A stretch of 48,135 bases of DNA from an uncultured Streptomyces sp. (GCA_964510405.1 CAZEAX010000001.1:1-48135), one strand, 5' to 3'. Positions 2,970 through 43,849 are shown, numbered from the stretch's first letter. Translations and numbers: made by a program. Notes: a model not told the origin generated them from the letters alone.

Positions 2970-3001
2970 TCGCAAGACCAATCAATCGAGGGGAGCTGCG
3001 C

Positions 3002-19599: not shown

Positions 19600-20559
19600 T
19601 TACTCGGCCTGGATATTGGCGGCTTTCACCACTTCGGCCCATTTTTTGAGTTCGGAATCGAGGACCTTTTTGAATTCGCCGGGCGTAGACGGAATGGCTT
19701 CAAGCGAAAGCGCGGCGAGCCGTTCCCGCACCTGCGGTTGGTTGACCGCCTTCACAATCTCGCGGTTGAGCATCGCGATGATCGCCTGCGGCACGCCGGC
19801 CGGCGCCAGCACGCCGTTCCAGTTTTCGCCTTCGACGCCTTTGACGCCGGCTTCGGCCATGGTCGGTACATCGGGTATCGCCGCGGAGCGTTTTTTTCCG
19901 GCAATCGCGAGTCCGCGCAGGCGTCCGGATTGAATATGCGGCACAGCGGCGGGCATGGTGCTGATCGCGGATTGCACCTGGCCGGCGACCGTGTCCGCGA
20001 CGGCGGGGCCGGTGCCCTTGTAAGGCACGGGATTTAGCTTGATGCCGGCGCGCAATTGAAAAAGCTCGCCGACCACGTGCGTCGTCGCGCCGACGCCGCC
20101 GTGGCCGAGCGTGATTTTGCCCGGCTGAGCTTTGGCGAGCGCGATGAATTCCGCGAGGTTCACAGCCGGCACCGACGGATGCATGACGAGAATCGCCGGC
20201 GAAGTCGCGACCATGGATACCGGCACGAAATCCCTGGCGAGATCGTAGCCGACATTCTTGCTGACCGCGGGATTGATCGTGACCGGCAGGTCCGTGAACA
20301 GCAGCGTGTAGCCGTCGGGCTGTGCGTGCGCGGCGAGCTGGGTGCCGAGCATGCTCGCGGCGCCCGGCCGCGTGTCGATGACGATGGTGGTGCCGAGGTA
20401 TTCACCGAGCTTCTGGCCGAGGATGCGCGCGGAGATTTCGGAGCCGCCGCCCGGCGCCCACGGTACTATCATGCGGATCGGGCGATTTGGGTAGTCGCTG
20501 GCGAGTGCTGCACCCGCGGTCAACGCGCAGGCGATCGATATGGTTCGGCAAATTTTCAT
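19600..20559 (-). CDS. TctC/Bug-family substrate-binding protein
   Basis: Signal peptide, then SDYPNRPIRMIVPWAPGGGSE, PDGYTLLF and PVPYKGTGPAV. Its start overlaps the upstream stop (ATGA at 20556..20559). Confidence 0.9.
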   Translation of the reverse strand: MKICRTISIACALTAGAALASDYPNRPIRMIVPWAPGGGSEISARILGQKLGEYLGTTIVIDTRPGAASMLGTQLAAHAQPDGYTLLFTDLPVTINPAVSKNVGYDLARDFVPVSMVATSPAILVMHPSVPAVNLAEFIALAKAQPGKITLGHGGVGATTHVVGELFQLRAGIKLNPVPYKGTGPAVADTVAGQVQSAISTMPAAVPHIQSGRLRGLAIAGKKRSAAIPDVPTMAEAGVKGVEGENWNGVLAPAGVPQAIIAMLNREIVKAVNQPQVRERLAALSLEAIPSTPGEFKKVLDSELKKWAEVVKAANIQAE

Positions 20560-22781: not shown

Positions 22782-23738
22782 TTAATTCAGTTTGATGTCG
22801 GCGGCTTTGACGACTTTGGCCCAGCGTTCGTAGTCTTCGCGGATGAACTGGCCGAGCTCGTCGGGCGACATCGGTGCGGGAATGAGGCCCTGCGCCATCA
22901 ATTTTTCGCGCACGTCGGGCGAGTTCAGCGCTTTGACTGCGTCGGCGTTGAGGCGTGCGACGAGTTCTTTCGGCGTGCCGGCGGGCGCCATCAGCGGATA
23001 CCAGTTGAGCACGTCGAAGCCGGGCAGCCCGGATTCGTCCACGGTCGGCACGCTCGCCAGCGGCGGATAACGCTTCCTGCCGGACACGCCGAGGACTTTG
23101 AGCCGGCCCGCCTGCAATTGCGGCAGCACCGAGGGATCGGAGAACGTGAGGTCCGCGTGGCCGCCCATGATGTCGGCGATCGCGGGCGCCGTGCCTTTGT
23201 ACGGAATGTGAATCATGTGGATGCCGGCCATCACGTTGAAGAGTTCGCCGGCGAGATGCTGGCCGGTGCCGGCGCCGCCGGACGCCATGTTGAGTTTGCC
23301 GGGATTGGCTTTCGCGAGCTTGATCAGCTCGGCGGCGTTTTTCGCGGGCACCGAAGGATGCGCGACGATGATGTACGGCATGGTCACGAGCATCGTGATC
23401 GGCGCGAGATCCTTGAGCGGGTTGTAGCCGAGCTTCGGAAACAGCAGCGGCGCGACCGCGACCGAGCCCGGTCCCGCGACGAGCAGCGTGTAGCCGTCGG
23501 GCGCGGACTTTGCGACGTGTTCGGCGCCGATGGTGCCGGCCGCGCCCGCGCGGTTGTCGATCACGACCTGCTGGCCCAGATATTCGGTGAGTTTCTGGCC
23601 GACCGTGCGCGCGGTGAGATCGACGCCGCCGCCGGCGGGAAACGGCACCACGATGCGCACGGGTTTGTTCGGATAACCCTGCGCGCCGGCCGCCAGGGCG
23701 TACGCGATGCTCAGTGCCGCGATGAGGAGTTTCGTCAT
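22782..23738 (-). CDS. TctC/Bug-family substrate-binding protein
   Basis: Internal ATG 23738. Signal peptide MTKLLIAALSIAYALAAGAQGYPNKPVRIVVPFPAGGGVD, then DNRAGAAGTIGAEHVAKSAPDGYTLLV and HIPYKGTAPAI. Confidence 0.9.
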   Translation of the reverse strand: MTKLLIAALSIAYALAAGAQGYPNKPVRIVVPFPAGGGVDLTARTVGQKLTEYLGQQVVIDNRAGAAGTIGAEHVAKSAPDGYTLLVAGPGSVAVAPLLFPKLGYNPLKDLAPITMLVTMPYIIVAHPSVPAKNAAELIKLAKANPGKLNMASGGAGTGQHLAGELFNVMAGIHMIHIPYKGTAPAIADIMGGHADLTFSDPSVLPQLQAGRLKVLGVSGRKRYPPLASVPTVDESGLPGFDVLNWYPLMAPAGTPKELVARLNADAVKALNSPDVREKLMAQGLIPAPMSPDELGQFIREDYERWAKVVKAADIKLN

Positions 23739-23760
23739 GGTGAATGAATAATACCTCACG

Positions 23761-24954
23761 CTACGTGTGCTCCTTCTGCAGAAAGAAATCGCCCGACAGC
23801 TCGGTGCCGAGGCCCATGCGGCGCGCATTTCCGAGTATCCGGGCGCCGGCAGCGGCGAACTGCATGCCGCAGCCGTTGTTGTTCAGGTGGTGCGTGATTT
23901 CGTCCGCGCTATTGCGTCCTGTCGCGCGCCCGTTCAGGAGGTCTCCCAGCTCGACATAGGAGTCCCAGTCGAATTCCTGCGCCTTCTGGTTGATCAGTTG
24001 GCCGAAGGTCGCGCCGCGTTTTTTTTCACCCATCACGAAATTCTGCACGAAATCGCTGGTGTCGCCGAACGGCTTCAGGCTGACCACGATCTGGCGGCTC
24101 GATTTGAACGTGCGCACATCGTCTTCCAGCAGCGTGCCGATGCCCAGGTGCATGCCGGGCAGAAGCCACTCGGCGTCGTATACGGGCTCGTACGAACTCG
24201 TCGCGGCAAGCACGATGTCGGCGTTCTCGAACGCGCGTTGTGCGGAATCGACTGCGATGACCTCGACGCCGATGCGCTCGCTCATCGTGCGCGCAAACCG
24301 TTCGCGGTTTGCCTGCGTAGGACTGTAGATGCGCACGCGCCTCAACTTCATGATCGCGGCCGTGCATTCGAGCGCGGCTTCGGCCTGTGCACCGCTGCCG
24401 AGCACGCCGACCGTTTCGGACTCCGGGCGCGCAAGCAGTTTCACGCCGAGTGCCGTGGTACCGCCGACGCGCATTTTCTGGATGTGCGAATCGGGCAGCA
24501 TGCCGAGCACTTCGCCGGTCTCGAGCGACAGCAGCACGATCATGCTCATGAACTGCCAGCCGGGCGCCAGCGGCAGCTTCACGCGGCGCAATACGCCGGC
24601 GATTTCGGGTTGCGTATCGAAGTGCGTCGAGATGCGCACCGCCATCATGCCGCACGCGGGCAATCCGCCGGTCACGGTTTTCAGGCGATAGACGACGTCG
24701 CCCGCTTTCTTGGCGGCCTCTATCGTCGGCGCGGCGTAGACGGGATCGGCGTCCAGCGGCAGCGCGTCGATGCGCGCCGCCGTCGCGCGCTTGATGTCCG
24801 GCGTGTAGCCGTCGAACGGCACGCACGTGTCGACGCGCAGCGAATTGACGGCGCGGCCGGCGCCGAGTTCGCGAAACGCCTGCTCCATCGTTTCGACGTA
24901 TTCGTCCGCGCGCATGGCGGCGGCGACTTCGCGGTTGTCGAGCAGAAGAGGCAT
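23761..24954 (-). CDS. ornithine cyclodeaminase/mu-crystallin family protein (long form)
   Basis: Internal ATG 24954. The Rossmann segment is VGVLGSGAQAEAALE, with an OCD-like N-terminus (MPLLLDNREVAAAM). It is about 397 aa, longer than typical family members. Confidence 0.8.
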   Translation of the reverse strand: MPLLLDNREVAAAMRADEYVETMEQAFRELGAGRAVNSLRVDTCVPFDGYTPDIKRATAARIDALPLDADPVYAAPTIEAAKKAGDVVYRLKTVTGGLPACGMMAVRISTHFDTQPEIAGVLRRVKLPLAPGWQFMSMIVLLSLETGEVLGMLPDSHIQKMRVGGTTALGVKLLARPESETVGVLGSGAQAEAALECTAAIMKLRRVRIYSPTQANRERFARTMSERIGVEVIAVDSAQRAFENADIVLAATSSYEPVYDAEWLLPGMHLGIGTLLEDDVRTFKSSRQIVVSLKPFGDTSDFVQNFVMGEKKRGATFGQLINQKAQEFDWDSYVELGDLLNGRATGRNSADEITHHLNNNGCGMQFAAAGARILGNARRMGLGTELSGDFFLQKEHT

Positions 24955-25077: not shown

Positions 25078-26061
25078 ATGCGGATACGCACGTTATTTTT
25101 TGCCGCACTCGCGCTCGGCGTCATCATCGGCGCGAACGAATCGCGCGCGCAGCCGTGGAAGCCCGCGCGCGGCATTGAAATCATCGTCGGTTCCGCGCCG
25201 GGCGGCGGCGCCGATTTGACCGGCCGGCTTATGCAGAAGCTGTTCCAGGAAAAGCTGATCGCCGACGTCGCAAGCAGCGTCGTCAACAAGACGGGCGGCG
25301 GCAGCACGCTGAGTTTCGTCTATCTGAACCAGCATCCGGGCGACGCGCATTACATCGCGCTGACGCTGCAGCCGATGATCACCGGGCCGTTGATGATCGC
25401 GGGCCAGATCAGTTACACGGAGATGACTCCGCTCGCGCACCTGATCAACGAGTACGTCGGTTTCGCGGTGCGGCCCGACGGCGCCATCAAATCCGGCCGC
25501 GACGTGCTCGAGCGGCTGAAGAAAGACCCTGCTTCGCTCACGATCGCGTTGTCCACCGCGCTCGCGGGCTCCAACCATCTGGCGACGGTGCTCGCGCTCA
25601 AGGCCGCGGGTGTCGACATCAAGCGCCTGCGCGTGATCGTGGTGAAAGGCGCGGGTGATGCGATTACCGGCGTGATGGGCGGCCACTACGATATCGCCGC
25701 CGCGAGCGCGGCGAGCCTCATTCCATTTCTGGAATCCGGCAAGCTGCGTGGCATCGCGGTGTCGGGGCCCAAGCGGCTGCACGGCGCGTTTGCAAACGTG
25801 CCGACGTGGAAAGAGCAGGGGGTCGATTCCGTATATGCGAACTGGCGCGGCGTCGTCGGCCCCAGGGGCCTGACCGCGCCGCAGATTGCATACTGGGACG
25901 GCGTGTTCGCGCAGCTCGCGCAACTGCCGGAATGGCGCGACGAGCTCGCGCGCCTGTTGCAGGACCCTGTTTATCTCAACAGCCGCGAAACGAAAAGTTA
26001 TCTCGATTCGCAGCACCAGGAATTGCGCGCCGTGCTGGTCGATCTGGGCCTGGCGAAATAG
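25078..26061 (+). CDS. TctC-family substrate-binding protein (divergent subgroup)
   Basis: Only the last third of ORF 23767..26061 is coding. ATG at 25078, then signal peptide MRIRTLFFAALALGVIIGANESRAQ. It continues PWKPARGIEIIVGSAPGGGADLTGR and has a TctC-like C-terminus. Confidence 0.82.
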   Translation: MRIRTLFFAALALGVIIGANESRAQPWKPARGIEIIVGSAPGGGADLTGRLMQKLFQEKLIADVASSVVNKTGGGSTLSFVYLNQHPGDAHYIALTLQPMITGPLMIAGQISYTEMTPLAHLINEYVGFAVRPDGAIKSGRDVLERLKKDPASLTIALSTALAGSNHLATVLALKAAGVDIKRLRVIVVKGAGDAITGVMGGHYDIAAASAASLIPFLESGKLRGIAVSGPKRLHGAFANVPTWKEQGVDSVYANWRGVVGPRGLTAPQIAYWDGVFAQLAQLPEWRDELARLLQDPVYLNSRETKSYLDSQHQELRAVLVDLGLAK

Positions 26062-28282: not shown

Positions 28283-28311
28283 TTGTGAGCAAGCGGGCAG
28301 TCTGCTATGTT
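28283..28311 (+). promoter_or_regulatory. candidate sigma70-type promoter of the selenoprotein operon, overlapping a palindrome
   Basis: TTGTGA (28283..28288), a 17-nt spacer, then TATGTT (28306..28311), about 30 nt upstream of ATG 28341. The palindrome CGCTTG-tgag-CAAGCG (28280..28295) overlaps the -35 element. This is pattern match only. Confidence 0.25.
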
Positions 28312-28340
28312 GCCCGCAATCAACGATTCCCGGAGCAGGC

Positions 28341-28886
28341 ATGACTAAATTTGGATTTCGCACGCTGGCAGTCGTGGCGCTCGCAGCGCTGGCATTTTCC
28401 ACCGCGGCCGCCGAGCTTCCGCCCTTGCCCGCGGGACTTACCGCGGTGACCAAGCCCGTTCACCTGCCCGCATTCACGCTCGCGACGCCCGCCGGCGGCA
28501 AAGTGCACGCGGATGAATTCAAGGGCAAGGTGCTGATCGCCCGCTTCTGGGCCACCTGGTGAGACATCTGCGTAGGTGAAATGCCCTCCGTGCAGAGGGC
28601 ACATGATGAATACAAGAAGAGCGGCGTGCCGGTGATCGCGATTTCGATCGACGGCGACGGCGAAAAATCGGTCAAGCCTTTCCTGGCCGAGCACAAGTAC
28701 ACTTTGCCAACGCCGCTCGATCCCGACATGGCGGTGGCGCGCGCCGTCGGCGTGCGGGTAACGCCGTGGACCGTGATCGTCGACCGCAGCGGCGCGGTGG
28801 TGGCCGGTGGTTACGGCAAGATCGACATGCAGAGCGCGGAATTCCGCAATTACGTGAAGGCGCTTGCCGCAAGGCCGCCGGGATAA
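28341..28886 (+). CDS. exported TlpA/ResA-like thioredoxin-fold thiol:disulfide oxidoreductase with in-frame TGA (predicted selenocysteine) at 28560..28562, active site W-U-D-I-C
   Basis: ORFs 28224..28562 and 28581..28886 are in the same frame and separated only by one TGA. Read-through gives FKGKVLIARFWATW[TGA]DICVGEMPSVQ...VIAISIDG...TPWTVIVDRSG, matching the TlpA/ResA pattern FWATWCxxCxxEMP. GGAG lies 5 nt before ATG 28341, followed by signal peptide MTKFGFRTLAVVALAALAFSTAAA. Confidence 0.8.
28565..28608 (+). promoter_or_regulatory. candidate bacterial SECIS stem-loop downstream of TGA 28560
   Basis: The upper stem pairs TGCCCTC (28582..28588) with GAGGGCA (28595..28601), with loop CGTGCA containing G and U. 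The lower stem pairs CATC (28565..28568) with GATG (28605..28608). The apical loop lies about 27-32 nt after the UGA. Confidence 0.5.
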
Positions 28887-28933
28887 CGACACCGTCGATT
28901 TTTTTTCGCAGCACCACAACAAGGGAGGCTCGC

Positions 28934-29500
28934 ATGAAGTCGAAACGATGGAGAAATCTGTGGCTGGGAATGTTGTTCGCCGGATCGGCCCTCGCGGGCG
29001 GTGCCGCGCATGCAATAGATGTCGGCGCGAAAGCGCCGGACTTCGCGCTGATGTCCTCGACCGGCAAGGAAATCAAGCTCGCCGATTTCGCCGGCAAGAA
29101 GGCGGCGGTGCTCTTTTTCTACATAGGCGCGTTCACCAACACTTGAACGCAGGAAGCGCTGGCCTTCCAACTTGATCTTCCCAAGTTCGAGGCCGCGAAT
29201 GCCCAGGTCCTGGGCATCAGTGTCGACTTCAACGACGCTAACAAGGCATGGGGCGAGAAACTCGGCCTCAAGTATCCGCTGCTGTCCGATCTGCGCCGCG
29301 AGATGTCACGCGCTTACGGCGTGCTGAACGACGACGCGACCGCGGCAGGCGACACCAAGCGTATCGCGACGTATCTGCGCTCCAAACGCGCGTGGTTCAT
29401 CGTCGACAAGAACGGCGTCGTGGTCTACGCGCGGGTCACGGATCCGCGCGGGCTCGTGCCCAACGACGAGATGCTGGAAGTGCTCGAGAAATTGAAATAG
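28934..29500 (+). CDS. exported BCP/peroxiredoxin-like protein with in-frame TGA (predicted selenocysteine) at 29144..29146 in the peroxidatic position
   Basis: ORFs 28766..29146 and 29303..29500 are in the same frame (difference 537 nt), with no other stop between them. Read-through gives KAAVLFFYIGAFTNT[TGA]TQEALAFQ...VLGISVDFNDANKAWGEKLGLKYPLLSD...AWFIVDKNGVV, the AhpC/TSA-BCP pattern FFYPxxFTxxCTxE. AAGGGAGG lies 5 nt before ATG 28934, followed by signal peptide MKSKRWRNLWLGMLFAGSALAGGAAHA. Confidence 0.8.
29152..29187 (+). promoter_or_regulatory. candidate SECIS region downstream of TGA 29144 (two alternative small hairpins)
   Basis: Hairpin A pairs GGAAG (29152..29156) with CTTCC (29164..29168), with loop CGCTGGC. 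Hairpin B pairs AACTTG (29169..29174) with CAAGTT (29182..29187), with loop ATCTTCC. Which of them, if either, is functional cannot be decided by eye. Confidence 0.35.
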
Positions 29501-29506
29501 CCTGAA

Positions 29507-29533
29507 GCGCCCGCGCGCCGCAGGCGCGGGCGC
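29507..29533 (+). terminator. GC-rich hairpin after the peroxiredoxin-like gene (possible terminator, no U-tract)
   Basis: GCGCCCGCGC-gccgcag-GCGCGGGCGC forms a 10-bp perfect stem 7 nt after stop 29500. It lacks a T-run. Confidence 0.35.
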
Positions 29534-29612
29534 ATCGCGCGTTCGCAATCTTGCCGGCATCGAGCCGCGGTAGCAGGCTCGATGCCGTTTCAGTTTGGAC
29601 GACGCTTACGCC

Positions 29613-30584
29613 ATGAGTTATCGCAATGCTTCCCGCTGGCTGCTCGCGGCGCTGCTCGTATCGGTTCAATCGGCGCATCCGGCGGAAAATTTCCCCGCGA
29701 AGACCGTGCGGTTGATTGTGCCTTTTGCGGCGGGCGGCGGCGGCGACGGCGCGGCGCGTCCGCTTGCCCAGGCGTTGTCCGCGCGGCTCGCGCAGCAGGT
29801 GGTCATCGATAACCGCGGCGGCGCAGGCGGAATCATCGGCATCGAGACCGCGGCGAACGCGGCGCCCGACGGCTATACGCTGTTGCTCTCCACCGCGGGT
29901 TTTGCCGCGCTGCCCGCGCTGCATCGTACGCTGCCTTTCGACCCTGTGCGCGATTTCACCGGTGTCATCGTCGCGCAATCCGGCATTTACATACTCGTCG
30001 TAAATCCGGCGGGCAATATCACGTCGGTGAACGGCTTGATTTCGTACGCGAAGGCGAATCCGCGCAAGCTTGATTTTGCATCGGCGGGCATCGGTTCGAC
30101 GATCCATCTCGCAGGCGAGCTCTTCAAAAGCATGGCGCAGATCGACATGGTCCACGTGCCGTACAAGGGCGCCGGACCCGCGATTACCGACGTAATCGGC
30201 GGACAGGTGCAGACGATGTTCGCATCCGCTCTGAACGCACTGCCGCTGGTCAAATCGGGAAAGTTGCGCGCGCTGGCGGTGACTTCGGCGCAGCGTTCCG
30301 CACTCGTTCCGGAGTTGCCGACTGTGGCGGAAAGCGGCATGCCGGGCTTTGAAGCGACGGGTTGGTACGGGCTTGCCGCACCGGCGCGCACGCCGAAGCC
30401 GATCGTGCGCAAACTCAATGCGGATGCGAACAGCGCGCTGCGTTCGCCTGAGCTTGTTGATTTGCTAAAAGCGCAGGGGCTTGAACCCGTCGGCGGAACG
30501 CCGGAAGCCGCGACTGAACTCATCCGCAAGGACGTGGAGCGCTGGACGCGATTGATCCGCGATGCCGGCATCAAACAGCAATAG
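29613..30584 (+). CDS. TctC/Bug-family substrate-binding protein
   Basis: ATG 29613 (alternative TTG at 29595). Signal peptide, then AENFPAKTVRLIVPFAAGGGGD, DNRGGAGGIIG, PDGYTLLL and HVPYKGAGPAI. Confidence 0.9.
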   Translation: MSYRNASRWLLAALLVSVQSAHPAENFPAKTVRLIVPFAAGGGGDGAARPLAQALSARLAQQVVIDNRGGAGGIIGIETAANAAPDGYTLLLSTAGFAALPALHRTLPFDPVRDFTGVIVAQSGIYILVVNPAGNITSVNGLISYAKANPRKLDFASAGIGSTIHLAGELFKSMAQIDMVHVPYKGAGPAITDVIGGQVQTMFASALNALPLVKSGKLRALAVTSAQRSALVPELPTVAESGMPGFEATGWYGLAAPARTPKPIVRKLNADANSALRSPELVDLLKAQGLEPVGGTPEAATELIRKDVERWTRLIRDAGIKQQ

Positions 30585-32682: not shown

Positions 32683-33797
32683 CTAATTGAGCTGTATTCC
32701 CGTCGCCTTCACCAGCGTGTTGAGCCTTTCGTAATCCGCTTTGATGTTCGCCGCAAGCTGCTCCGGCGTGCCCGGTGTCGCGATCAAGCCCTGAGCCAGC
32801 AGCTTTGATTTCGCTTCGGGCTGCGCGAGAGCTCGCGCGATTTCCGCATTGAGACGCGCAATGACTTCGCGCGGCGTGCCCGCGGGTGCGAAGAGCGCGT
32901 ACCACGTGATCGAGACGAATCCCGGCAGCCCCGATTCGGCGATCGTCGGCACGTTCGGCAAAGGTTCGTAGCGCGTCGTACCCGAAACACCCAGGGCTTT
33001 CAACCTTCCGGAAATAATTTGCGGCAACACCGCGGCGTCGAGAAATCCCTGATTGGCGTGGCCGCCGATCAGGTCGGTGATCGCCGGCGCGGTGCCTTTG
33101 TACGGCACATGCGTCATGCGCGTGCCGGCGAGCAGGTTGAATTCTTCTTCCGCGATATGCTGGCCGCCGCCGGCGCCGCCCGATACTACATTGAGCCGGC
33201 CCGGGTGCGCTTTCGCGAGCGCGATCAGCTCACGCGCATTACGCGCCGGCACCGCCGGATGCGCAGAGAGAATATAAGGCGCCGTCACGAGGTTGCCGAC
33301 CGCAGCGATGTCGCGCGTTGGCACGTAGGGCAGATTGGGATTCGTCAGCGCCGCGGCGACGAGCGGGCCGCGTCCGCTCACGAGCAGCGTGTAACCGTCG
33401 GGCGCCGACTTCGCGACGTGATCGGTGCCGATACGCCGTTGCAGGGCGGAGCAGGGGACCCCTTCAGGGGATGCGACCCCGGAAACGTGCGCCGCGGACG
33501 CGTTTAATTCCACGGCGTCGTCTTCCGACTCGCGGACGTTCACATCCCGCAAGCGGGAGCCCTGTTCACTGCTCGCGTCCGGCCGCCCGCACCGGGGCGG
33601 TTATCGACGATCGCCGACACGTTCAAAGACGGCGCAAGCTGTTGTGCGATCGCGTGGCCGGTAATGTCGACACCGCCGCCGGCGGGATAGGGAACGACGA
33701 TGCGGACGGGTTTGGACGGATAAGCTTGCGCGTATAACGGCGACCCGTTCAGCACCAACGCAGCGCACACCAGCGGGCGGGCGTGACGCATCATCAT
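32683..33797 (-). pseudogene. TctC/Bug-family substrate-binding protein gene disrupted by a ~149-nt insertion
   Basis: The N-terminal piece (33797..33582) reads MMMRHARPLVCAALVLNGSPLYAQAYPSKPVRIVVPYPAGGGVD...VDNRPGAGG. The C-terminal piece (33432..32683) reads IGTDHVAKSAPDGYTLLV...HVPYKGTAPAI... The two pieces are in different frames, and a stop lies inside the intervening sequence. Confidence 0.8.
33433..33581. repeat. structured ~149-nt insertion interrupting the TctC gene (REP/MITE-like, identity unknown)
   Basis: The boundaries are inferred from where TctC homology stops and resumes. Nested hairpin: GGGG (33454..33457) pairs with CCCC (33477..33480), enclosing CCCC-ttca-GGGG. A second hairpin is TCCCGC-aa-GCGGGA (33545..33558). 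The inverted 8-mers are CGGACGCG (33495..33502) and CGCGTCCG (33574..33581). Confidence 0.45.
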
Positions 33798-35020: not shown

Positions 35021-36709
35021 TTATTTTTGCTCTGTCCCGTTCGTTGCGCGGTATCCGTAAACCGCTTGTGCTTCGTCCGCCGACACCAGTCCGTACTCGA
35101 CATCTCGCGCAACTTTTTCGCGCGTGCGTTTTTTCGGATCGCCGATGCCCCCGCCGCCGGGCGTCTCCACGACCACGCGATCGCCGGCCGGTATCACCTG
35201 GCGGCCGAAACCGCGCAGGGTCGCGCCGGATTTCAATGACAACCGTCCGGCGCCGCCGCTTTTGCCGCCGGCGCTGCCGCGCGCCGCGTGCACGATGCGG
35301 TCGAAAGTCGCGGAGATGATCATCGGCGCGTCGTCGCCGTTGGCGATTTCCATGATCTGCCCGAGGCCGCCGCGGTGCTCGCCGGCGCCGCCGGAATCGG
35401 GCCGGTACTCTTTCTTCCAGTACACGACGGGCGACAGCGTCTCCATAATCTCCACCGCGACGTTGCGGATGCCGCTCGGAAACGACGTGACGGACAGCCC
35501 GTCCTTGCCGGGGCGCGCGCCGGTGCCGCCGGTGTTGAAGCCCACGACGTTGAAGCGCGTCTTGCCTTTGAGTTGTTCGGGATCGACGCCCTTGAACGTC
35601 TGGCCGCCGGCGAGCCGCACGTTCCACAACGACGACGTGCCTTCCGCCGGCACCTGGTCGGGCCGCGCCTGGTGCAGGCAGCCGAACACGACGTCGGGCA
35701 GCATCTGGCCGATGGTCGAGCGCGCCGCGACCGCGAGCGGGAAGGGCGCGTTGACGATCGAGCCTTCGGGCGCGGTTACGCGCACGACGGACAACGAGCC
35801 CGCGTTGTTCGGAATATGGCCGCCGATGATGCAGCGCACGCCGAACGACGTGTACGCGTCGGTGTACGACTTCGGCACGTTGATGCCGTTGGTGACGCAC
35901 GGGCTGGTGCCGGTGAAATCGATGTCGATGCCGGATTTCGCAATCGTGAGCCTGCCTTTGAGCGTGATCGGCGCGTCGTAGCCGTCGATCGTCATCGAGT
36001 AAGACCAGCTTCCCCGCGGCCACTCGCGCGCCGCGGCCAGCATCGCCGCGCGCGAGCGCTGGATGATGTGCGCGCCGAGTTTTTCGATGCCCTGCAATTT
36101 ATACTCGTCCATCATCGCAAGCAGGCGGCGGCCGCCGATTTCGTTGCACGCGACGAGCGCGTACAAATCACCTTCGACCTGCACCGGTTCGCGCACGTTC
36201 GCGCGCACGACGCGCAGCATCGTGTCGCTCACGACGCCGCGGTCGACGAGTTTCAGCGGCGGCAGGAACAGGCCTTCGTGATATACCTGCGTGCCGTCGG
36301 CGGAGAGCCCGAGCCCGCCGATGTCGACCACGTGCACGGTAGACGCGAACAGCGCGACCATGCGCCGGCCTTTGAAAACCGGCGTCACCATCGTCATGTC
36401 GTTGAGATGACCCGTGCCTTTCCACGGATCGTTGGTCAGGAACACGTCGCCCGGATACATCGTGCCCGCCGGATATTCGTTGAGGAAATGCCTGACGGAT
36501 TCCGCCATCGAGTTCACGTGTCCCGGCGTGCCGGTCACCGCCTGCGCGACCATGCGGCCGTCGGGCAGGAAGACACCGGCGGAAAGATCGCCGGCTTCGC
36601 GCGTCGCCGCGCCGAACGCAGTGCGCACCAGCGTCTGCGCCTGCTCTTCGACGACCGAGATCAGACGGTTCCACATCACCTGCATGTGAAGGTCGGCGAG
36701 TTTGCTCAC
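35021..36709 (-). CDS. hyuB: hydantoinase/oxoprolinase family, B (HyuB-like) subunit
   Basis: A GTG at 36709 overlaps the hyuA stop (GTGA); an alternative ATG lies at 36685. Motifs include MQVMWNRLISVVEEQ and FLTNDPWKGTGHLND, with GGGGIGDP near the C-terminus. Confidence 0.88.
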   Translation of the reverse strand: MSKLADLHMQVMWNRLISVVEEQAQTLVRTAFGAATREAGDLSAGVFLPDGRMVAQAVTGTPGHVNSMAESVRHFLNEYPAGTMYPGDVFLTNDPWKGTGHLNDMTMVTPVFKGRRMVALFASTVHVVDIGGLGLSADGTQVYHEGLFLPPLKLVDRGVVSDTMLRVVRANVREPVQVEGDLYALVACNEIGGRRLLAMMDEYKLQGIEKLGAHIIQRSRAAMLAAAREWPRGSWSYSMTIDGYDAPITLKGRLTIAKSGIDIDFTGTSPCVTNGINVPKSYTDAYTSFGVRCIIGGHIPNNAGSLSVVRVTAPEGSIVNAPFPLAVAARSTIGQMLPDVVFGCLHQARPDQVPAEGTSSLWNVRLAGGQTFKGVDPEQLKGKTRFNVVGFNTGGTGARPGKDGLSVTSFPSGIRNVAVEIMETLSPVVYWKKEYRPDSGGAGEHRGGLGQIMEIANGDDAPMIISATFDRIVHAARGSAGGKSGGAGRLSLKSGATLRGFGRQVIPAGDRVVVETPGGGGIGDPKKRTREKVARDVEYGLVSADEAQAVYGYRATNGTEQK

Positions 36710-38802
36710 GATCGTTTCCCTTTGCGCTTGTCGAGCACGATGTGTCCGGCGCTGTTGACCGCCGCGTCGAAATTCGCGGTGACGATCACGGTGGTCTGGT
36801 CTTCGACGATCAGCGCGGGACCGGTGGCGCGCGCACCGCCGGCGAGCGCCGCGCGTTCGTATACGGGAACCGTGCGCCATTGCGCGAGCGTGGGCTCGAA
36901 GATGCGCCGCTTCCCTGCCGGACGCGCGCTTTTGCGCGGCAGCGCGCGCGCTTTCGCTGCGCGCTTAACCCTGGTCGACACGGTAACCGACCAGCTCATG
37001 ATCTCGACGTCCATGTTGGGCACGGTGCGCCCGTAGAGCACGCGATAGGCTTCATCGAAGCGGCGTTTCAGGTTCGCGGTGTCTTTGGCGGCGAGCTTGC
37101 CGGATGGCAGCATCACCGCGATTTCGTGGCCCTGGCCCGCGTAGCGCATGTAGGCAACGCGCGTCGCCGCCAGCGGTGCGTTGCCCGCGGCAGTGCGCAC
37201 GACCGCGGTCGCCTGCTTCGTCATTTCGTCGAGCAGCCGGTTCGCGTGCGCGACGTCGAGTTTCGCGATGAACTGGTACCAGCTGCGCACCGCCTGAAAT
37301 GCGACCGGTGCGGTGAGGAATCCGAGCGCCGAGCCCACGCTCGCGCCGACCGGGATGACTACGCGCGTAACACCCAGCTTGTCCGCGAGCCGCGCGGCAT
37401 GCAAGGGCGCGGCGCCGCCGAATGCGATCACGGTGTAGTTCTCGACCGTCTTGCCGAGTTCCATTGCGTGCACGCGCGCGGCATTCGCCATGTTCTCGGT
37501 GACGATTTCGGTGATGGCGAGCGCGCCTAACGCGGTATCGACTTTGAGCGGCTTCGCAATGTCGCGGGTGACCGCCGCCTCCGCCAGCCCGGTTTCGAGC
37601 GCGACGCGGCCGCCGGCAAAGCGTTGCGGGTCGAGCAAACCCATCGCGCAATCGGCATCGGTCACGGTTGCGTGGTCGCCGCCGCGCGCGTAACACGCGG
37701 GACCCGGCTCGGAGCCCGCGCTGTCGGGCCCGACCTGCACGCGTTCGAGATCGTCGACGCGCGCGATCGAGCCGCCGCCCGCGCCGATTTCGACCATCTC
37801 GATCACCGGGATGCGGATCGGCAGCCCGCTGCCTTTGAGAAAACGGTACATGCGCCCGAATTCGAAGCTGCGTGAAATTTCCGGTTCGTATTCGTCGATG
37901 AAGCAGATCTTCGCGGTGGTGCCGCCCATGTCGAACGACAACGCGCAATGCGCGCCGCAACTCTCGGCGACGGTGCGCGCGAGGATCGCGCCGCCGGCGG
38001 GGCCCGATTCGACGAGGCGCACGGGCTCCGCCGCGCCCATCGCGAGCGTGCACAGCGCGCCGCCTGACGTCATCAGGTAAACCGGGCAGCGGATGCCCAT
38101 CGTGTTGAGACGCGTCTGCAGCCGGTTCAGATAGCCCGCCATCACCGGTTGCACGTAGGCGTTCGCGCACGTGGTCGAGATGCGCTCGTATTCGCGGATT
38201 TCCGGGCACACGTCCGACGACAGCGTGACCCACAGTTCGGGCAGCGCGCGCTTCAGAATGTCTTTCGCGCGCTGCTCGTGAAGCGGGTTCGTGAAACTCT
38301 GCAGAAACGCGATGGCGACGCTTTCGATGCCCTGGCGCTTGAGCGTCGGCGCCAGCGCTGCGACCGCGGCTTCGTCGAGCGGCAGCAGCACGCGGCCTTT
38401 GGCATCGATGCGTTCGGGCACCGGCAGGCGCAGATGACGCGGCACCAGCGGCGCCGGCTTGTCGATAAAAATATCGTACTGCGCGAAGCGGTGCTCCCAG
38501 CCGATTTCGACGAGATCGCGGAAGCCTTCGGTGGTCACGAGCGCGGTCCTCGCACCCTTGCGCTCGATCAACGCGTTGGTCGCGAGCGTGGTGCCGAGGA
38601 TGAAGAGATCGAGCGCGTCGGGGGCCAGCGCGGCCTCGGCGAGAATTTCGCGCACGGCGGCGATCACCGCATCTTCCGGCGCGCGCGGCGTGGTGAGCAC
38701 TTTGCCGGTCCACTGCCGGCCGCGCGCCTCGAGCACGATGTCGGTGAAAGTGCCGCCGATATCGACGGCGAGACGCGCACCCGCTGGTTTTGCTGCTGAC
38801 AT
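36706..38802 (-). CDS. hyuA: hydantoinase/oxoprolinase family, A (HyuA-like) subunit
   Basis: Contains RLAVDIGGTFTD near the N-terminus and LSFDMGGTTAK. The start is taken at ATG 38802 (MSAAKPAG...), and an alternative ATG at 38829 is possible. The SD is weak for both. Confidence 0.88.
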   Translation of the reverse strand: MSAAKPAGARLAVDIGGTFTDIVLEARGRQWTGKVLTTPRAPEDAVIAAVREILAEAALAPDALDLFILGTTLATNALIERKGARTALVTTEGFRDLVEIGWEHRFAQYDIFIDKPAPLVPRHLRLPVPERIDAKGRVLLPLDEAAVAALAPTLKRQGIESVAIAFLQSFTNPLHEQRAKDILKRALPELWVTLSSDVCPEIREYERISTTCANAYVQPVMAGYLNRLQTRLNTMGIRCPVYLMTSGGALCTLAMGAAEPVRLVESGPAGGAILARTVAESCGAHCALSFDMGGTTAKICFIDEYEPEISRSFEFGRMYRFLKGSGLPIRIPVIEMVEIGAGGGSIARVDDLERVQVGPDSAGSEPGPACYARGGDHATVTDADCAMGLLDPQRFAGGRVALETGLAEAAVTRDIAKPLKVDTALGALAITEIVTENMANAARVHAMELGKTVENYTVIAFGGAAPLHAARLADKLGVTRVVIPVGASVGSALGFLTAPVAFQAVRSWYQFIAKLDVAHANRLLDEMTKQATAVVRTAAGNAPLAATRVAYMRYAGQGHEIAVMLPSGKLAAKDTANLKRRFDEAYRVLYGRTVPNMDVEIMSWSVTVSTRVKRAAKARALPRKSARPAGKRRIFEPTLAQWRTVPVYERAALAGGARATGPALIVEDQTTVIVTANFDAAVNSAGHIVLDKRKGKRS

Positions 38803-38936
38803 TCGGAGGGATCCCGGGGAATGTGCCATGCGCCATGGCATGGCTTCATTAATGGAACGATTATAATCAATCGGCGATTCAGCGCACATGCGCGAGGCGC
38901 GTGCAAGCTGCAGGAGAACATGTGTCACTCGTGAAA

Positions 38937-40766: not shown

Positions 40767-41726
40767 TCAGTCCATGGTCACGTTCGCCGTCTTCGCGACG
40801 CGAAACCACTTCTCCGACTCGGCGGCGTAGTAAGCGGCGAATTGCTCCGGCGTATTCCCCACGGCGACGCCGCCGAGTTCGAGCACTCTTTCCCGCAGCG
40901 CAGGAGTCTTCAGCGCTTTGGCGAGTTCGTCGCTGACGTGGCGCCGCTGTTCGAGCGGCACGCCGGCCGGCATCGAAATGCCCTGCCATGAACTCGCGTC
41001 GTAACCTTTCAATCCCGATTCGGCTACGGTCGGCACCTTCGGCAAAACGGGAAAGCGGTCCTTCGTCGAGACGGCGATCGCGCGCAGCCGGCCTTCTTTC
41101 ACGAAAGGCATGACGCCGACCGCGGGCGCGAACGCAACTTCGACGCGGCCCGCGAGATGATCGACCATCTGCGCGCCGGCGCCCTTGTAGGTGATCAGCG
41201 CGACGTCGACGCCCGCCTGCTGTTTCAGGAGCTCCATTGCGAGATGCGGGCTCGCGCCGCCGCCGCTCGATGCGTAGTTGAGCGCGCCGGGCCGGCGTTT
41301 GGCGAGCGCGATCAATTCGCCGAGGTTTTTTACCGGCAGCGCAGGATGCACAAGCAGCAGCATCGGCACGGTGGCGACCAGCGTCACGTGCGAGAAATCC
41401 TTCAGCGAATCGTAGCCGGCGTTGTTCGACAGGCGCGATGCGATCGTTTGCGCCGGCGCCACCATGCACATCGTGTAGCCGTCGGGCGGCGCTTTGGTGC
41501 ACAGCGCGGTCCCGATGTTGCCGCTCGCACCCGGGCGGTTGTCGGCGATCACGTTGACGCCCCACGCGTCGGTCAGCGCTTTCGCGACGATGCGGCCCAG
41601 CGTGTCGGTCGCGCCGCCGGGCGGGTAGGAGAGGATGAAGCGAACAGGTTTTGCCGGATAACTCTGTGCATGCGCGGCGGCCGTAAAAGTTGACGCAATC
41701 AGACAGCTAATGAAGAAGTGCTTCAT
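40767..41726 (-). CDS. TctC/Bug-family substrate-binding protein
   Basis: Signal peptide, then AQSYPAKPVRFILSYPPGGATD, DNRPGASGNIG, PDGYTMCM and TYKGAGAQM. Confidence 0.9.
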   Translation of the reverse strand: MKHFFISCLIASTFTAAAHAQSYPAKPVRFILSYPPGGATDTLGRIVAKALTDAWGVNVIADNRPGASGNIGTALCTKAPPDGYTMCMVAPAQTIASRLSNNAGYDSLKDFSHVTLVATVPMLLLVHPALPVKNLGELIALAKRRPGALNYASSGGGASPHLAMELLKQQAGVDVALITYKGAGAQMVDHLAGRVEVAFAPAVGVMPFVKEGRLRAIAVSTKDRFPVLPKVPTVAESGLKGYDASSWQGISMPAGVPLEQRRHVSDELAKALKTPALRERVLELGGVAVGNTPEQFAAYYAAESEKWFRVAKTANVTMD

Positions 41727-41732
41727 CGGTGA

Positions 41733-42719
41733 TTACGGCAGCTCGACGAACGTGCCGCGCCCCGTGCGTTCGGCTTCGCGCAGCGCGTAGGCGGAGAAAG
41801 CGACGTCGCCGGTTGCGATGCCCTGCACGATCGCGAGCACGCGATCGGATGCGGCGAGGCGGCCGGGCTTTTTGCCCGCGACCACATCGCAGGTCAGGGC
41901 GTCGATCCGCGCGGCAAAAGTTGCGCGCGACAAATGGCCCTGCGCGATCCACGCGCCGCCGTCGCCGACCTCGGAGGCGAAATCGGGATCGTCGACGACC
42001 AGCCGTTCGCATTCCTGGAAAACGCCGAATTCGAGTTCGTTGCCGCCGCCCATCGAGCACACGACGGCGCCGCGCTTGACTGAGCCGGCGGCGACGAATG
42101 GTTCGCGCGCGGCGGTGACGGTGATGACGACGTCGGCGCCGTCGATCGCGCGCGCGGCGGCAGGCTCCTCGCGCACCGGGAACGCAACGCGCGGTGCGTG
42201 TGCGGACACGAAAGCGCTCACGCTTTCGCCGCGCCGCGAATAGACGCGCAGTTCGCGGATTGCCAGCGCCGAGGCGAGCATCGGCACCAGCTCGTGCGCG
42301 ATCTTGCCCGTGCCGCAGAGCGCGACGGCGAGCGGCCCCGGATTGACGAGCGCTTCGAGCGTTGCCGTGCCGAAGGCGGCGGTGCGAATGCGGCTGATCC
42401 ACAGTTCCGGCACGAGTCCCGACAGCGCGAGGCTCTCGTGTTGGTAAACGGCGGTGTAGTTGAAAGCGTCGGGATCGGTCGCCGAGCGCCGCGAGATCAG
42501 GCGAATTCCCGACGCGCCGAGATGGCCGACGGTTGCCGCCTTGAATTTGAAACGGCCGGCGCCAAAGCGCGTCGCGTCGAGCGCCATCGACGACGGAGCC
42601 GACAGCTCGCTGGCGCCGGCCGCCTGATCGCGCAAGGTTGCGCGCGCAAGGTCGAGCGCACGCGCGCTGTCGATCGCGGCGCGTACATCATGTTCGCTCA
42701 ATATGCGGATGCCGGGCAT
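41733..42719 (-). CDS. ornithine cyclodeaminase/mu-crystallin family protein
   Basis: 328 aa. The N-terminus MPGIRILSEHDVRAAID is OCD-like. The Rossmann segment is VALCGTGKIAHELV. Confidence 0.85.
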   Translation of the reverse strand: MPGIRILSEHDVRAAIDSARALDLARATLRDQAAGASELSAPSSMALDATRFGAGRFKFKAATVGHLGASGIRLISRRSATDPDAFNYTAVYQHESLALSGLVPELWISRIRTAAFGTATLEALVNPGPLAVALCGTGKIAHELVPMLASALAIRELRVYSRRGESVSAFVSAHAPRVAFPVREEPAAARAIDGADVVITVTAAREPFVAAGSVKRGAVVCSMGGGNELEFGVFQECERLVVDDPDFASEVGDGGAWIAQGHLSRATFAARIDALTCDVVAGKKPGRLAASDRVLAIVQGIATGDVAFSAYALREAERTGRGTFVELP

Positions 42720-42886
42720 GCGGCGTGATTATCACATCATCGAGGCCGCGAATGAAGATTGCACGTTTCGGTGCATGCTTTGCACGCTGCCGGTGCGCGC
42801 GAATGCATTGCCGCGCATGCGTGCTTGTGCGATCATCGATCACGCTTCAACTCGTTCAATTCCACTTCGGCGCCCGCACTGTCCCC

Positions 42887-43849
42887 ATGATTCGCTGTTG
42901 TTCCGCTTTGCTGGTTTGCGCGTCGCTCTCCGCTTCATTCGCCCACGCGCAAAACTATCCGGCCAAGCCGGTGCGCATACTCATGGGTTTCCCCGCGGGC
43001 AGCACCGTCGACGTGCTGGTGCGGCCGCTCGCGCAGCGCCTGACCGAAACGTTCGGCCAGCAATTCATCGTCGACAACCGCGCGGGCGCGACCGGCGTGA
43101 TCGCTTCCGAACTGGTGGCCAGGGCCGCGCCCGACGGCTATACGCTGCTCGGCACGCCGAGCTCCGCGATCACCAGCACGCCGCATCTGAATCGCATGCC
43201 CTTCGATCCGCTGCGCGATTTCGTGAGCGTCGCCCAGATCAACTGGTTTTCTTACGTATTGATCACCCACCCGTCGGTGCCCGCCAATAACGTGGCCGAG
43301 CTCATCGCGCTCGCAAAGGCGAAGCCCGGCGTGCTGACCTACGGTTCATCGGGCATCGGCAGCGCGTTTCATCTGGCGGGCGAGCTGTTCCGCCTGATGG
43401 CGAAGATCGACATCGTGCATGTGCCGTACAAGGGCGGTCCGCCCGCGGTCACCGACATGATGGGCGGACGACTCGATCTCATGTTTTATTCGCTCGCCGT
43501 CGTGCGCCAGCAGATCGACGCGGGCCGGCTGCGCGCGCTTGCCGTGACCGGCGATCGGCGTGATCCGTTGCTGCCCAATGTGCCGACGGTCGCCGAGTCC
43601 GGATTGCGCGGCTACGAAATGAGCGGCGGCCACGTGATACTCGCGCCGGCCGCAACGCCGCGCGATACGCTCGTCAAACTCAACGCGGCGATACTCAAAG
43701 CGCTGGCGACGCCGGAGATGAAGGAACTGTGGGCGCGGCAGGGCATGGAGATTTACCTGACGACGCTCGACCAGGCGGCGGCGCGCCTGCGCGGCGATTA
43801 CGAGCGCTATGGCAAGCTCATCAAAGATGCGGGCATCAAGGCTGAATAA
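42887..43849 (+). CDS. TctC/Bug-family substrate-binding protein
   Basis: Internal ATG 42887. Signal peptide, then AQNYPAKPVRILMGFPAGSTVD, DNRAGATGVIA, PDGYTLLG and HVPYKGGPPAV. Confidence 0.9.
   Translation: MIRCCSALLVCASLSASFAHAQNYPAKPVRILMGFPAGSTVDVLVRPLAQRLTETFGQQFIVDNRAGATGVIASELVARAAPDGYTLLGTPSSAITSTPHLNRMPFDPLRDFVSVAQINWFSYVLITHPSVPANNVAELIALAKAKPGVLTYGSSGIGSAFHLAGELFRLMAKIDIVHVPYKGGPPAVTDMMGGRLDLMFYSLAVVRQQIDAGRLRALAVTGDRRDPLLPNVPTVAESGLRGYEMSGGHVILAPAATPRDTLVKLNAAILKALATPEMKELWARQGMEIYLTTLDQAAARLRGDYERYGKLIKDAGIKAE

Follow-up and report, generated by a model that had tools for sequence, protein, structure and literature searches.

A conserved gene pair predicted to encode two exported selenoproteins, a TlpA-like oxidoreductase and a BCP/PrxQ-type peroxiredoxin

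In Caulobacter crescentus, TlpA reduces the exported BCP-type peroxiredoxin (Prx) PprX with electrons from ScsB, and the thioredoxin-like domain of Escherichia coli DsbD can replace ScsB as the donor (Cho et al., 2012, PMC3322552). Homologs of PprX have been noted in Betaproteobacteria (PMC3322552). A peroxiredoxin with selenocysteine (Sec), PrxU, is known from Eubacterium acidaminophilum (Sohling et al., 2001, as summarized in PMC13188914; NCBIfam NF040737), and "Prx (TxxU)" as well as "Prx-like thiol:disulfide oxidoreductase (UxxC)" are catalogued selenoprotein families (PMC13188914; PMC1794560; PMC2398784). The latter, a PF00578 family, is present in Geobacter, Syntrophus, and others (PMC1794560; PMC13188914), and the GOS family "Prx-like 1" is grouped with it here. 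Here we describe a locus in which a gene for a TlpA/ResA-like thiol-disulfide oxidoreductase (gene 1) is followed by a gene for a BCP/PrxQ-type peroxiredoxin (gene 2). It occupies positions 28341 to 29500 of a stretch of 48,135 nt that was analyzed as a whole and is called the window in the following (GCA_964510405.1, CAZEAX010000001.1:1-48135, deposited as uncultured Streptomyces sp.). Judged from comparative sequence data, both are genuine selenoprotein genes that are read through a UGA codon, and Sec is used almost exclusively at both sites. We lean toward the view that the operon encodes two selenoproteins that are exported via the Sec pathway and jointly reduce peroxide in the periplasm.

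Gene 1 extends on the plus strand from the ATG at 28341 to the TAA at 28884-28886 and encodes 181 aa in a read-through translation. Its Shine-Dalgarno motif GGAG (28332..28335, +) is kept 5' of the start in relatives, and its single in-frame TGA (28560..28562, +) is the first position of a UxxC motif (FWATW-U-DIC-VGEMP). Gene 2 has the same orientation, starts 47 nt further downstream with the ATG at 28934, ends with the TAG at 29498-29500 (+), and encodes 188 aa without any Cys in a read-through translation. It has its own Shine-Dalgarno motif GGGAGG (28923..28928, +), and its single in-frame TGA (29144..29146, +) is found at the peroxidatic position (FYIGAFTNT-U-TQEA). This arrangement of two closely spaced, co-oriented genes, each with its own ribosome binding site and exactly one TGA at the redox-active position, is as it had been described in an earlier note on this DNA, which had also pointed out the lack of Cys in the Prx.

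Relatives from two sources were used to analyze the conservation of the two TGA codons. A scan with one genome per species yielded 159 Prx relatives, and the best 80 of these 159 loci were used; together with three metagenome contigs, and after subtraction of one duplicate, they form a non-redundant set of 82 loci. Seventy-six of them, 74 from species-representative genomes and two metagenome contigs, have sufficient upstream DNA to be testable for the pair, and the remaining six have less than 225 nt of DNA 5' of the Prx gene. The peroxidatic codon of gene 2 is TGA in all 82 loci (80 of which stem from species-representative genomes), and both genes contain the TGA in 76 of the 76 testable loci, always in the same order and on the same strand. 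In addition, JGI metagenome contigs were searched with the degenerate motif TGY-ACN-CAR-GAR-GCN...TTY-CAR-YTN-GAY-YTN-CCN-AAR-TTY-GA, which was run with TGY or TGA at the first codon. At least 119 stretches matched the TGA version, and there were zero matches to the TGY version, i.e., the Cys form. The 119 metagenome loci listed comprise 78 Sec/Sec pairs (a gap of up to 250 nt was accepted as adjacency), 13 pairs with the gene 1 site outside the alignment, 21 loci without upstream DNA, and seven exceptions. A single Cys/Cys pair was found (L087, 1976-2527, with the motif WCSIC, and 2681-3247), and no mixed Sec/Cys pair was seen among the related loci examined. The argument of the earlier note that two TGAs in exactly the catalytic codons of neighboring redox partners are very unlikely to have arisen by chance is thus strengthened by their retention in all testable loci and in 78 metagenome contigs. 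Overall, the pair is kept in far more than 100 uncultured bacteria, and the comparative test that the note had suggested, i.e., whether the two genes recur as neighbors in related genomes, spoke in favor of its interpretation.

The genetic code of the organism is not reassigned, because TGA is the commonest ordinary stop codon in the window and terminates 14 of the 30 long open reading frames (ORFs). Downstream of the two in-frame TGAs the typical pattern of coding sequences persists, with a third-codon-position variation of 0.31-0.35 versus 0.10-0.18 at the first and second positions. Over the 25 codons that immediately follow each TGA, the third-position variation is lowered to 0.19, and this damping argues for a constraint on synonymous sites at the RNA level.

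Hairpins that could exert such a constraint were found by folding and covariation analyses downstream of both UGA codons. A consensus bacterial selenocysteine insertion sequence (bSECIS; SECIS without reference to the domain) has a loop of 3-9 nt with a G among the two nucleotides at its start, a stem of 4-16 bp, a distance of 16-37 nt from the UGA, and a minimum free energy of at most -7.5 kcal/mol (PMC13188914). The hairpin of gene 1 (28582..28601, +) agrees with this description in all four respects. It consists of a 7-bp stem and the 6-nt loop CGUGCA with an invariant GU (G and then U at loop positions 2-3), has 26 nt between UGA and loop, and folds with -12.3 kcal/mol (z = -3.8). In 76 distinct sequences 98.9% of the alignment cells are paired, three base pairs are compensated (19 cells), and none of 500 shuffles matches these values; the change from CCC/AGG to CCU/AAG saves a base pair at the cost of an Arg-to-Lys replacement. 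The hairpin is nearly identical in nucleotides between Burkholderiales-type and Entotheonella-type loci (e.g., L060, L065, and L069), the proteins of which are only about 45% identical, and this suggests a horizontal spread of the cassette or a very similar recognition by SelB. The Cys-form TlpA-like gene of L087 also keeps a 7-bp hairpin at the SECIS position (2226-2247, -11.5 kcal/mol). Its loop likewise starts with CGUGCA, whereas its stem (GGACGC/GCGUCC) is a different one that is compensated; this hairpin may be a fossil SECIS or serve another function.

Gene 2 contains two covarying helices. Helix 1 (29162..29194, +) begins 15 nt after the UGA and is an interrupted 11-bp stem with the loop AUCUUCC (-14.9 kcal/mol, z = -3.6; 98.5% of the cells paired over 72 sequences; one compensated pair). 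Its distance from the UGA is right for a bSECIS, and neither of the first two loop nucleotides is a G. Helix 2 (29199..29217, +) is an 8-bp stem (AUGCCCAG/CUGGGCAU) with the loop GUC, of which the GU is invariant (-12.3 kcal/mol; 99.7% of the cells paired; three compensated pairs in 29, 4, and 4 sequences). Three Cys forms of the Prx (P0016, P0024, and P0025), which probably represent a single lineage, served as controls, and in these both helices are mismatched despite identical encoded amino acids. With helix 1 in its folded state, 15 + 4 = 19 nt remain single-stranded between the UGA and helix 2, as in gene 1. We hypothesize that gene 2 carries a composite SECIS, in which the folded helix 1 would bring the distal GU-loop hairpin to an effective distance of 19 nt.

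The gene 1 hairpin and helix 2 of gene 2, the presumed SelB-binding elements, share the base UGCCC...GGGCA. The corresponding pattern TGCCC-N(5-12)-GGGCA has three matches in the window versus 0.51 expected for this post hoc pattern, and two of them are the two hairpins. The third match (24141-24161, TGCCCAGGTGCATGCCGGGCA) lies inside a gene for an ornithine cyclodeaminase-like protein on the opposite strand, is devoid of an in-frame TGA, and has probably arisen by chance. With a covariance model derived from the 76 gene 1 hairpins, neither of the gene 2 helices is detected (helix 2 was searched at E <= 10). Because the pattern was chosen post hoc and the gene 1 model misses helix 2, a SECIS motif common to both genes is not claimed. 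Rfam searches, with gathering thresholds as well as with a permissive E-value, did not reveal a match to a SECIS or any other RNA family.

The annotation in public databases has obscured both genes. Gene callers stop at TGA, and therefore the protein databases hold C-terminal fragments. The public calls split the genes into about 73 + 101 aa and into 70 + 65 or 113 aa, respectively (P0001-P0240; L001-L006 and L090-L092), and the NCBI label for the fragments is "redoxin domain-containing protein". Accordingly, the database homologs of gene 1 are almost all C-terminal fragments of 101 aa, and those of gene 2 comprise fragments of 113 aa, full-length JGI calls with a W at the site, and the three true Cys forms (FYPGAFTNACTQEA). 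In JGI records the proteins are full-length and carry a Trp in place of Sec, because the respective contigs were apparently translated with TGA as Trp.

The residue frequencies given below refer to 76 distinct gene 1 homologs and 83 distinct Sec forms of gene 2. The active site of gene 1 reads W-U-D-I-C-x-x-E-M-P in the translation, and its flanking residues are strongly conserved, with W at -1 and C at +3 in 76 of 76 homologs, and E/D at +6 and P at +8 in 75 of 76. Exactly one Cys is present in 72 of the 76 proteins. The protein matches AhpC-TSA/Redoxin (E = 5.6e-22) and also Thioredoxin_8 in Pfam, and its nearest solved structures are 3kcm, a thioredoxin-family protein of Geobacter, ResA, and TlpA (1jfu). 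The active site aligns with FWATWCPPCREEIP of 3kcm, and the TGA stands opposite the catalytic Cys of ResA/TlpA and the Cys of the L087 form. The best NCBIfam matches are ResA and TlpA, and the scores of the NCBIfam models are all below the respective cut-offs (ResA 85 versus 170 bits, TlpA 63.6 versus 230 bits, DsbE 36.9 versus 123 bits). The N-terminus extends beyond those of the solved homologs in the alignment and resembles a signal peptide of 24 aa (28341..28412, +; predicted cleavage AAA|E). The N-termini of both proteins show a basic n-region, a hydrophobic core, and an AxA-type site, and by a heuristic of our own such an N-terminus is present in 67 of the 76 homologs of gene 1. Taken together, gene 1 is predicted to encode an exported protein of the TlpA/ResA class.

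For gene 2 the match to AhpC-TSA/Redoxin (PF00578) has an E-value of 1.2e-34 (119 bits versus a cut-off of 26 bits). The nearest solved structures are the archaeal BCP-type proteins 3hjp (Sulfolobus Bcp4, E = 4e-25) and 2ywn, both in full-length phmmer alignments, and 4g2e. The TGA is opposite the peroxidatic Cys of 2ywn (FTQVC) and the Cys of P0016, P0024, and P0025. Both Thr at -3 and U are present in 83 of 83 Sec forms. The catalytic Arg (R122, codon 29297..29299, +) is invariant in alignment A1 and resides in the context PLLSD-x-RR-x-x-x-x-YGV, which is alignable with solved Prx structures. The mature Prx is free of Cys in 78 of 83 homologs. The signal-peptide-like N-terminus, which comprises 27 aa (28934..29014, +; predicted cleavage AHA|I), was found with the same heuristic in 80 of 83 distinct homologs, and the alignment to cytoplasmic BCP structures begins only at residue 28. 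For both N-termini the conservation is in line with the cleavable-looking Sec-type signal peptides that the earlier note had described. Again, the scores of the best NCBIfam matches are all below cut-off (BCP PRK09437 63.7 versus 140 bits, PrxQ 57.3 versus 260 bits, PrxU 54.6 versus 270 bits), and for neither protein was any of the selenoprotein-specific NCBIfam models PrxU, WAxxUGC, SelL-related, and Prx-SUH matched at cut-off. The active site reads I-x-x-x-T-x-x-U in the translation; compared with the motif PxxxTxxC, an Ile replaces the Pro (codons I64...U71, 29123-29146, +). According to an earlier study, this Pro of the Prx active site is absolutely conserved (PMC3322552). The three Cys forms keep it, and its replacement accompanies Sec in this Prx subfamily.

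The spacer between the genes has in relatives mostly 11-84 nt, with two longer examples of 110 and 155 nt, and nearly always contains a GGAG-type site. Upstream of gene 1 a promoter-like element was identified by alignment (28283..28311, +), which consists of a -35 region TTGTGA (28283-28288), a 17-nt spacer, and an extended -10 region TGcTATGTT (28303-28311). It is kept across the upstream regions of 17 relatives with different upstream genes, an AraC gene here and the 3' end of a TctC gene elsewhere; in a generic promoter scan it scored below the threshold. Two G+C-rich hairpins 3' of the gene 2 stop codon (29507-29533 and 29555-29587, +; inverted repeats I7 and I3), the second of which is followed by TTTCAGTTT, are candidate terminators, a reading that stays provisional because a consensus terminator scan did not call them. 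The genes that flank the pair differ between lineages, and clustering of the neighboring ORFs of 80 loci revealed only lineage-specific genes for crotonase, 2-hydroxyacid dehydrogenase, and hydrolase as well as the ubiquitous TctC receptors. The extent to which one protein has diverged correlates with that of the other (r = 0.93). The pair is therefore predicted to be a self-contained, co-transcribed two-gene operon that has been co-inherited as a unit. In the spacer itself (28887-28933), eight consecutive T come after a weak hairpin of 4 bp (CGAC-ACC-GTCG). This terminator- or attenuator-like arrangement could lower the expression of gene 2 relative to gene 1, and spacer T-runs occur only in the closest relatives (L007-L011 and L015-L022).

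Most of the loci carry labels of metagenome-assembled genomes (MAGs) of uncultured Burkholderiales/Betaproteobacteria, about ten are labeled Entotheonella/Tectomicrobia, and one stems from a Planctomycetota MAG. The labels Streptomyces, Chitinophaga, and Bordetella parapertussis on a few loci look like unreliable submitter labels. Sequenced plasmids do not contain a homolog above 37% identity. Not all loci have the standard architecture, and the seven metagenome exceptions are L102, L139, L149, L153, L161, L166, and L202. In the exception L202 the two genes are separated by a gap of 287 nt. In one metagenomic sub-lineage a gene for a di-heme cytochrome c peroxidase (CCP_MauG, PF03150, E = 1.4e-44) is inserted between both genes on the same strand, resulting in the order TlpA(U) - CCP - Prx(U) (L153, 2641-3717; L139, 1288-2319, minus strand; L149, 3-362). 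Di-heme cytochrome c peroxidases are periplasmic H2O2 reductases, and the insertion of such a gene thus ties the operon to peroxide in the envelope. In L018 a second, divergent gene for an exported Prx-like protein is found about 1 kb downstream of the pair (about 5493-6020), which contains an in-frame TGA (EFYGADFAPT-U-AANL) and encodes a protein that is 36% identical to gene 2. In L026, the locus from the Planctomycetota-labeled MAG, a gene for a membrane-anchored CcmG/DsbE-like protein with the unusual motif W-C-Y-P-A-C (488-1165) is located directly 5' of the Sec/Sec pair.

How might the two proteins work together? Export, substrate, the direction in which electrons flow, the intermediate with an Se-Se bond, and the electron donor are all features that we infer. 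UGA 28560 and UGA 29144 would be decoded as Sec by SelB and tRNA-Sec, guided by the downstream hairpins. After export, the Prx, with I-x-x-x-T-x-x-U and Arg122 in its active site, would be oxidized by H2O2 or an organic hydroperoxide to the selenenic acid. In the absence of a resolving Cys, the Prx depends on a reductant, either another protein or a small molecule, for a direct attack on the selenenic acid, and in the proposed relay this attack would be made by the Sec of the U-x-x-C motif of the TlpA-like partner under formation of an intermolecular Se-Se bond. The Cys of the partner would then resolve this bond, yielding the reduced Prx and an intramolecular selenenylsulfide in the TlpA-like protein, which could be re-reduced by a membrane transporter of the DsbD/CcdA/ScsB type encoded elsewhere in the genome. 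The case for Sec follows from general selenium chemistry: compared to Cys, Sec is the better nucleophile and the better leaving group, it exchanges faster, and it would resist irreversible over-oxidation in a compartment without a repair system. In its most specific form, the proposal is an obligately all-selenium envelope peroxidase made of a 1-Sec Prx that has lost the canonical Pro as well as any resolving Cys and of a dedicated Sec-containing TlpA-like reductase, operating via an intermolecular diselenide and with a composite SECIS in the Prx mRNA; we advance this complete version only tentatively.

For the TGA codons themselves, one might think of pseudogenes, of assembly errors, or of a reassigned code in which TGA stands for Trp or Gly. 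Gene callers indeed split each gene into two ORFs, JGI translations have a W at the site, and neither a tRNA-Sec nor a sel gene was found in the window; a tRNA-Sec is also missing from 60 loci, and sel genes from the fetched loci. However, over 150 independent contigs agree in the codon that is occupied by the TGA, and the sequences before and behind it are under purifying selection. TGA also serves as the normal stop codon of 14 of 30 long ORFs in the window, true Cys homologs exist, covarying hairpins follow both TGAs, and a Trp or Gly at the peroxidatic or the CxxC position would inactivate both enzymes. Any such explanation has next to no probability, and the comparative data refute the pseudogene and the reassigned-code readings for practical purposes. 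Full sets of the Sec machinery have been reported on the chromosomes of Entotheonella, one of the lineages that carry the pair (PMC11703216), and the Sec-decoding trait is common in Betaproteobacteria (PMC1794560). Other in-frame TGAs with coding-like flanks in the window turned out to be antisense shadows only.

If both proteins are selenoproteins, they might still share an operon without forming a relay. Each could be reduced directly by a DsbD-type protein, or the TlpA-like protein could serve other clients, e.g., apocytochrome c, copper proteins of the Sco or CoxB type, or methionine sulfoxide reductase, and co-transcription would then indicate no more than that both depend on selenium or respond to the same stress. 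The hit names belong to the TlpA/ResA/CcmG families, which are best known for the maturation of cytochromes and copper centers, the TlpA-like gene in L153 and L139 adjoins a gene for a c-type di-heme protein that needs CxxCH reduction, and some Prx genes do not have a TlpA-like neighbor. We nevertheless regard this explanation as unlikely, in view of the adjacency in 76 of 76 testable and 78 metagenome loci with at least three phylum-level labels and varied flanks, the requirement of a Prx without resolving Cys for a direct reductant, and the joint switch of both proteins to Sec, the sole Cys version being Cys/Cys. Electrons might also flow in the opposite sense, in that the Prx would use peroxide to oxidize the TlpA-like protein, which in turn would oxidize envelope proteins or a sensor, serving disulfide formation or signaling as in Prx4-PDI of the endoplasmic reticulum or Orp1-Yap1 of yeast. 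Such an oxidizing relay has the same first chemical step as the reductive one, a 1-Sec Prx without a resolving residue is suited to hand its oxidation on to a partner, and a reductant gene linked to the pair was not found. It is, however, distinctly improbable, because the U-x-x-C-x-x-E-M-P motif and the overall similarity place gene 1 in the reducing TlpA/ResA class and not with the DsbA-type oxidases, the association with cytochrome c peroxidase suggests detoxification, and no candidate client or sensor is conserved beside the pair. The reductive relay is not free of difficulties either, and several observations weigh against it. In the 83 Sec forms of gene 2 the position of the motif Pro (-7) is occupied by I (66), V (13), F (2), or T (2) and never by Pro, and therefore peroxidase activity is not assured. 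Neither of the two proteins reaches a curated NCBIfam cut-off, and the element of gene 2 does not fit the consensus bSECIS, given that helix 1 lacks the loop G and the loop of helix 2 is 60 nt away from the UGA. In three Prx loci for which 400 nt or more of upstream DNA are available (L102, L161, and L166), a TlpA-like gene could not be detected upstream, and next to one Cys-form Prx its place is taken by a MerR gene; the Prx can thus exist without the neighbor. Lastly, no DsbD/CcdA/ScsB gene is present within about 4 kb of the pair in 80 loci or in the window.

The absence of a DsbD/CcdA-type electron conduit and of a thioredoxin reductase from the window, which the earlier note had observed, was confirmed: Pfam searches with 30 window ORFs (a few smaller ORFs were left out) as well as the genes annotated on a contig that stems from the same organism revealed neither of them and no sel gene. 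Thioredoxin reductase and sel genes are also missing among the clustered neighbors of the 80 loci. With regard to the AraC and major facilitator superfamily (MFS) genes upstream, for which the note had left a functional link undecided, they are shared by the closest relatives only. They are not conserved beyond these, and the pair has its own conserved promoter, so that a functional link was rejected. The window contains at least nine TctC genes for Bug-type receptors of tripartite tricarboxylate transporters in 48 kb (2001-2969, 8510-9478, 19600-20559, 22782-23828, 25084-26061, 29595-30584, 32683-33552, 40767-41726, and 42638-43849) and two gene pairs for hydantoinase/oxoprolinase A+B (11171-14832 and about 35021-38928, minus strand). 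Such a gene content is typical of Burkholderiales genomes with expanded Bug families.

The earlier note had regarded a dedicated, fully selenium-based exported pair as experimentally uncharacterized to its author's knowledge. A description of a Prx + TlpA-like Sec pair was not found in the literature, and the operon section of a 2026 review does not contain one. The novelty is, however, smaller than the note suggests, since a Cys-based periplasmic relay from ScsB via TlpA to PprX has been shown experimentally (PMC3322552) and both selenoprotein families are already listed. What is new is that the operon is conserved, that its products carry putative export signals, that Sec is used nearly exclusively, that the active-site Pro has been lost, that the element of gene 2 is atypical, and that the databases mis-annotate the genes. 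No dedicated redox pair of two selenoproteins would have been described for the bacterial envelope before. In an ocean metagenome survey, Cys homologs of the Prx and Prx-like families far outnumbered the Sec forms (PMC2398784). The pair offers a natural test of the choice between Sec and Cys, with at least 119 TGA stretches versus zero with TGY in one collection. An early survey listed formate dehydrogenase as the only selenoprotein of Betaproteobacteria (PMC1794560), and the pair widens the selenoproteomes of Burkholderiales-type Betaproteobacteria beyond this enzyme. It also exposes a systematic annotation error, by which the two genes appear in four pieces or with a Trp instead of Sec, and with its two hairpins gene 2 lends itself to a test of the distance rules that govern bacterial SECIS function.

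Compared with the known systems, each component of the locus combines familiar and deviating features. Gene 1 resembles, by description, the UxxC Prx-like oxidoreductase family in having a PF00578/PF08534 domain together with UxxC, and it differs from that family as described in being consistently paired with a Sec-Prx. TlpA of Bradyrhizobium and ResA of Bacillus, which are reducing thiol-disulfide oxidoreductases on the membrane side, belong to the same thioredoxin-like fold family and have the W-C-x-x-C-x-x-E-[MF]-P context and the cis-Pro loop in common with it. In contrast to these, it has Sec in place of the first Cys, its neighbor is a Prx gene and not a set of cytochrome-maturation genes, and its N-terminus looks like a cleavable signal peptide and not like a membrane anchor. 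With respect to the consensus bSECIS of Zhang and Gladyshev, as rendered in PMC13188914, the hairpin of gene 1 fits fully, and gene 2 has two covarying hairpins instead. Gene 2 has Sec at the peroxidatic position (T-x-x-U) like PrxU. Unlike PrxU, which stems from a Firmicute anaerobe, it belongs to uncultured Burkholderiales-type bacteria, has a signal-peptide-like N-terminus, scores 54.6 bits against the PrxU cut-off of 270 bits, and mostly has I/V at the position of the Pro of PxxxTxxU, which is highly conserved according to the review (PMC13188914). The likeness to PprX and TlpA of C. crescentus, which is based on their descriptions and not on orthology, is the closest in terms of pathway. 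Again, a signal-bearing BCP/PrxQ-type Prx is combined with a TlpA-type reductant, here predicted to be exported, and the DsbD-family donor is encoded elsewhere, which for our locus is a proposal. The differences are that both catalytic nucleophiles are Sec and not Cys, that a resolving Cys is missing from the Prx, whereas PprX forms an intramolecular disulfide with its two redox-active Cys, that the active-site Pro is replaced, and that the two genes are adjacent and predicted to be co-transcribed, in contrast to CC1673 and CC2210, which are not neighbors. Taking likenesses and differences together, the locus most likely represents the Sec/Sec counterpart of the ScsB-TlpA-PprX pathway.

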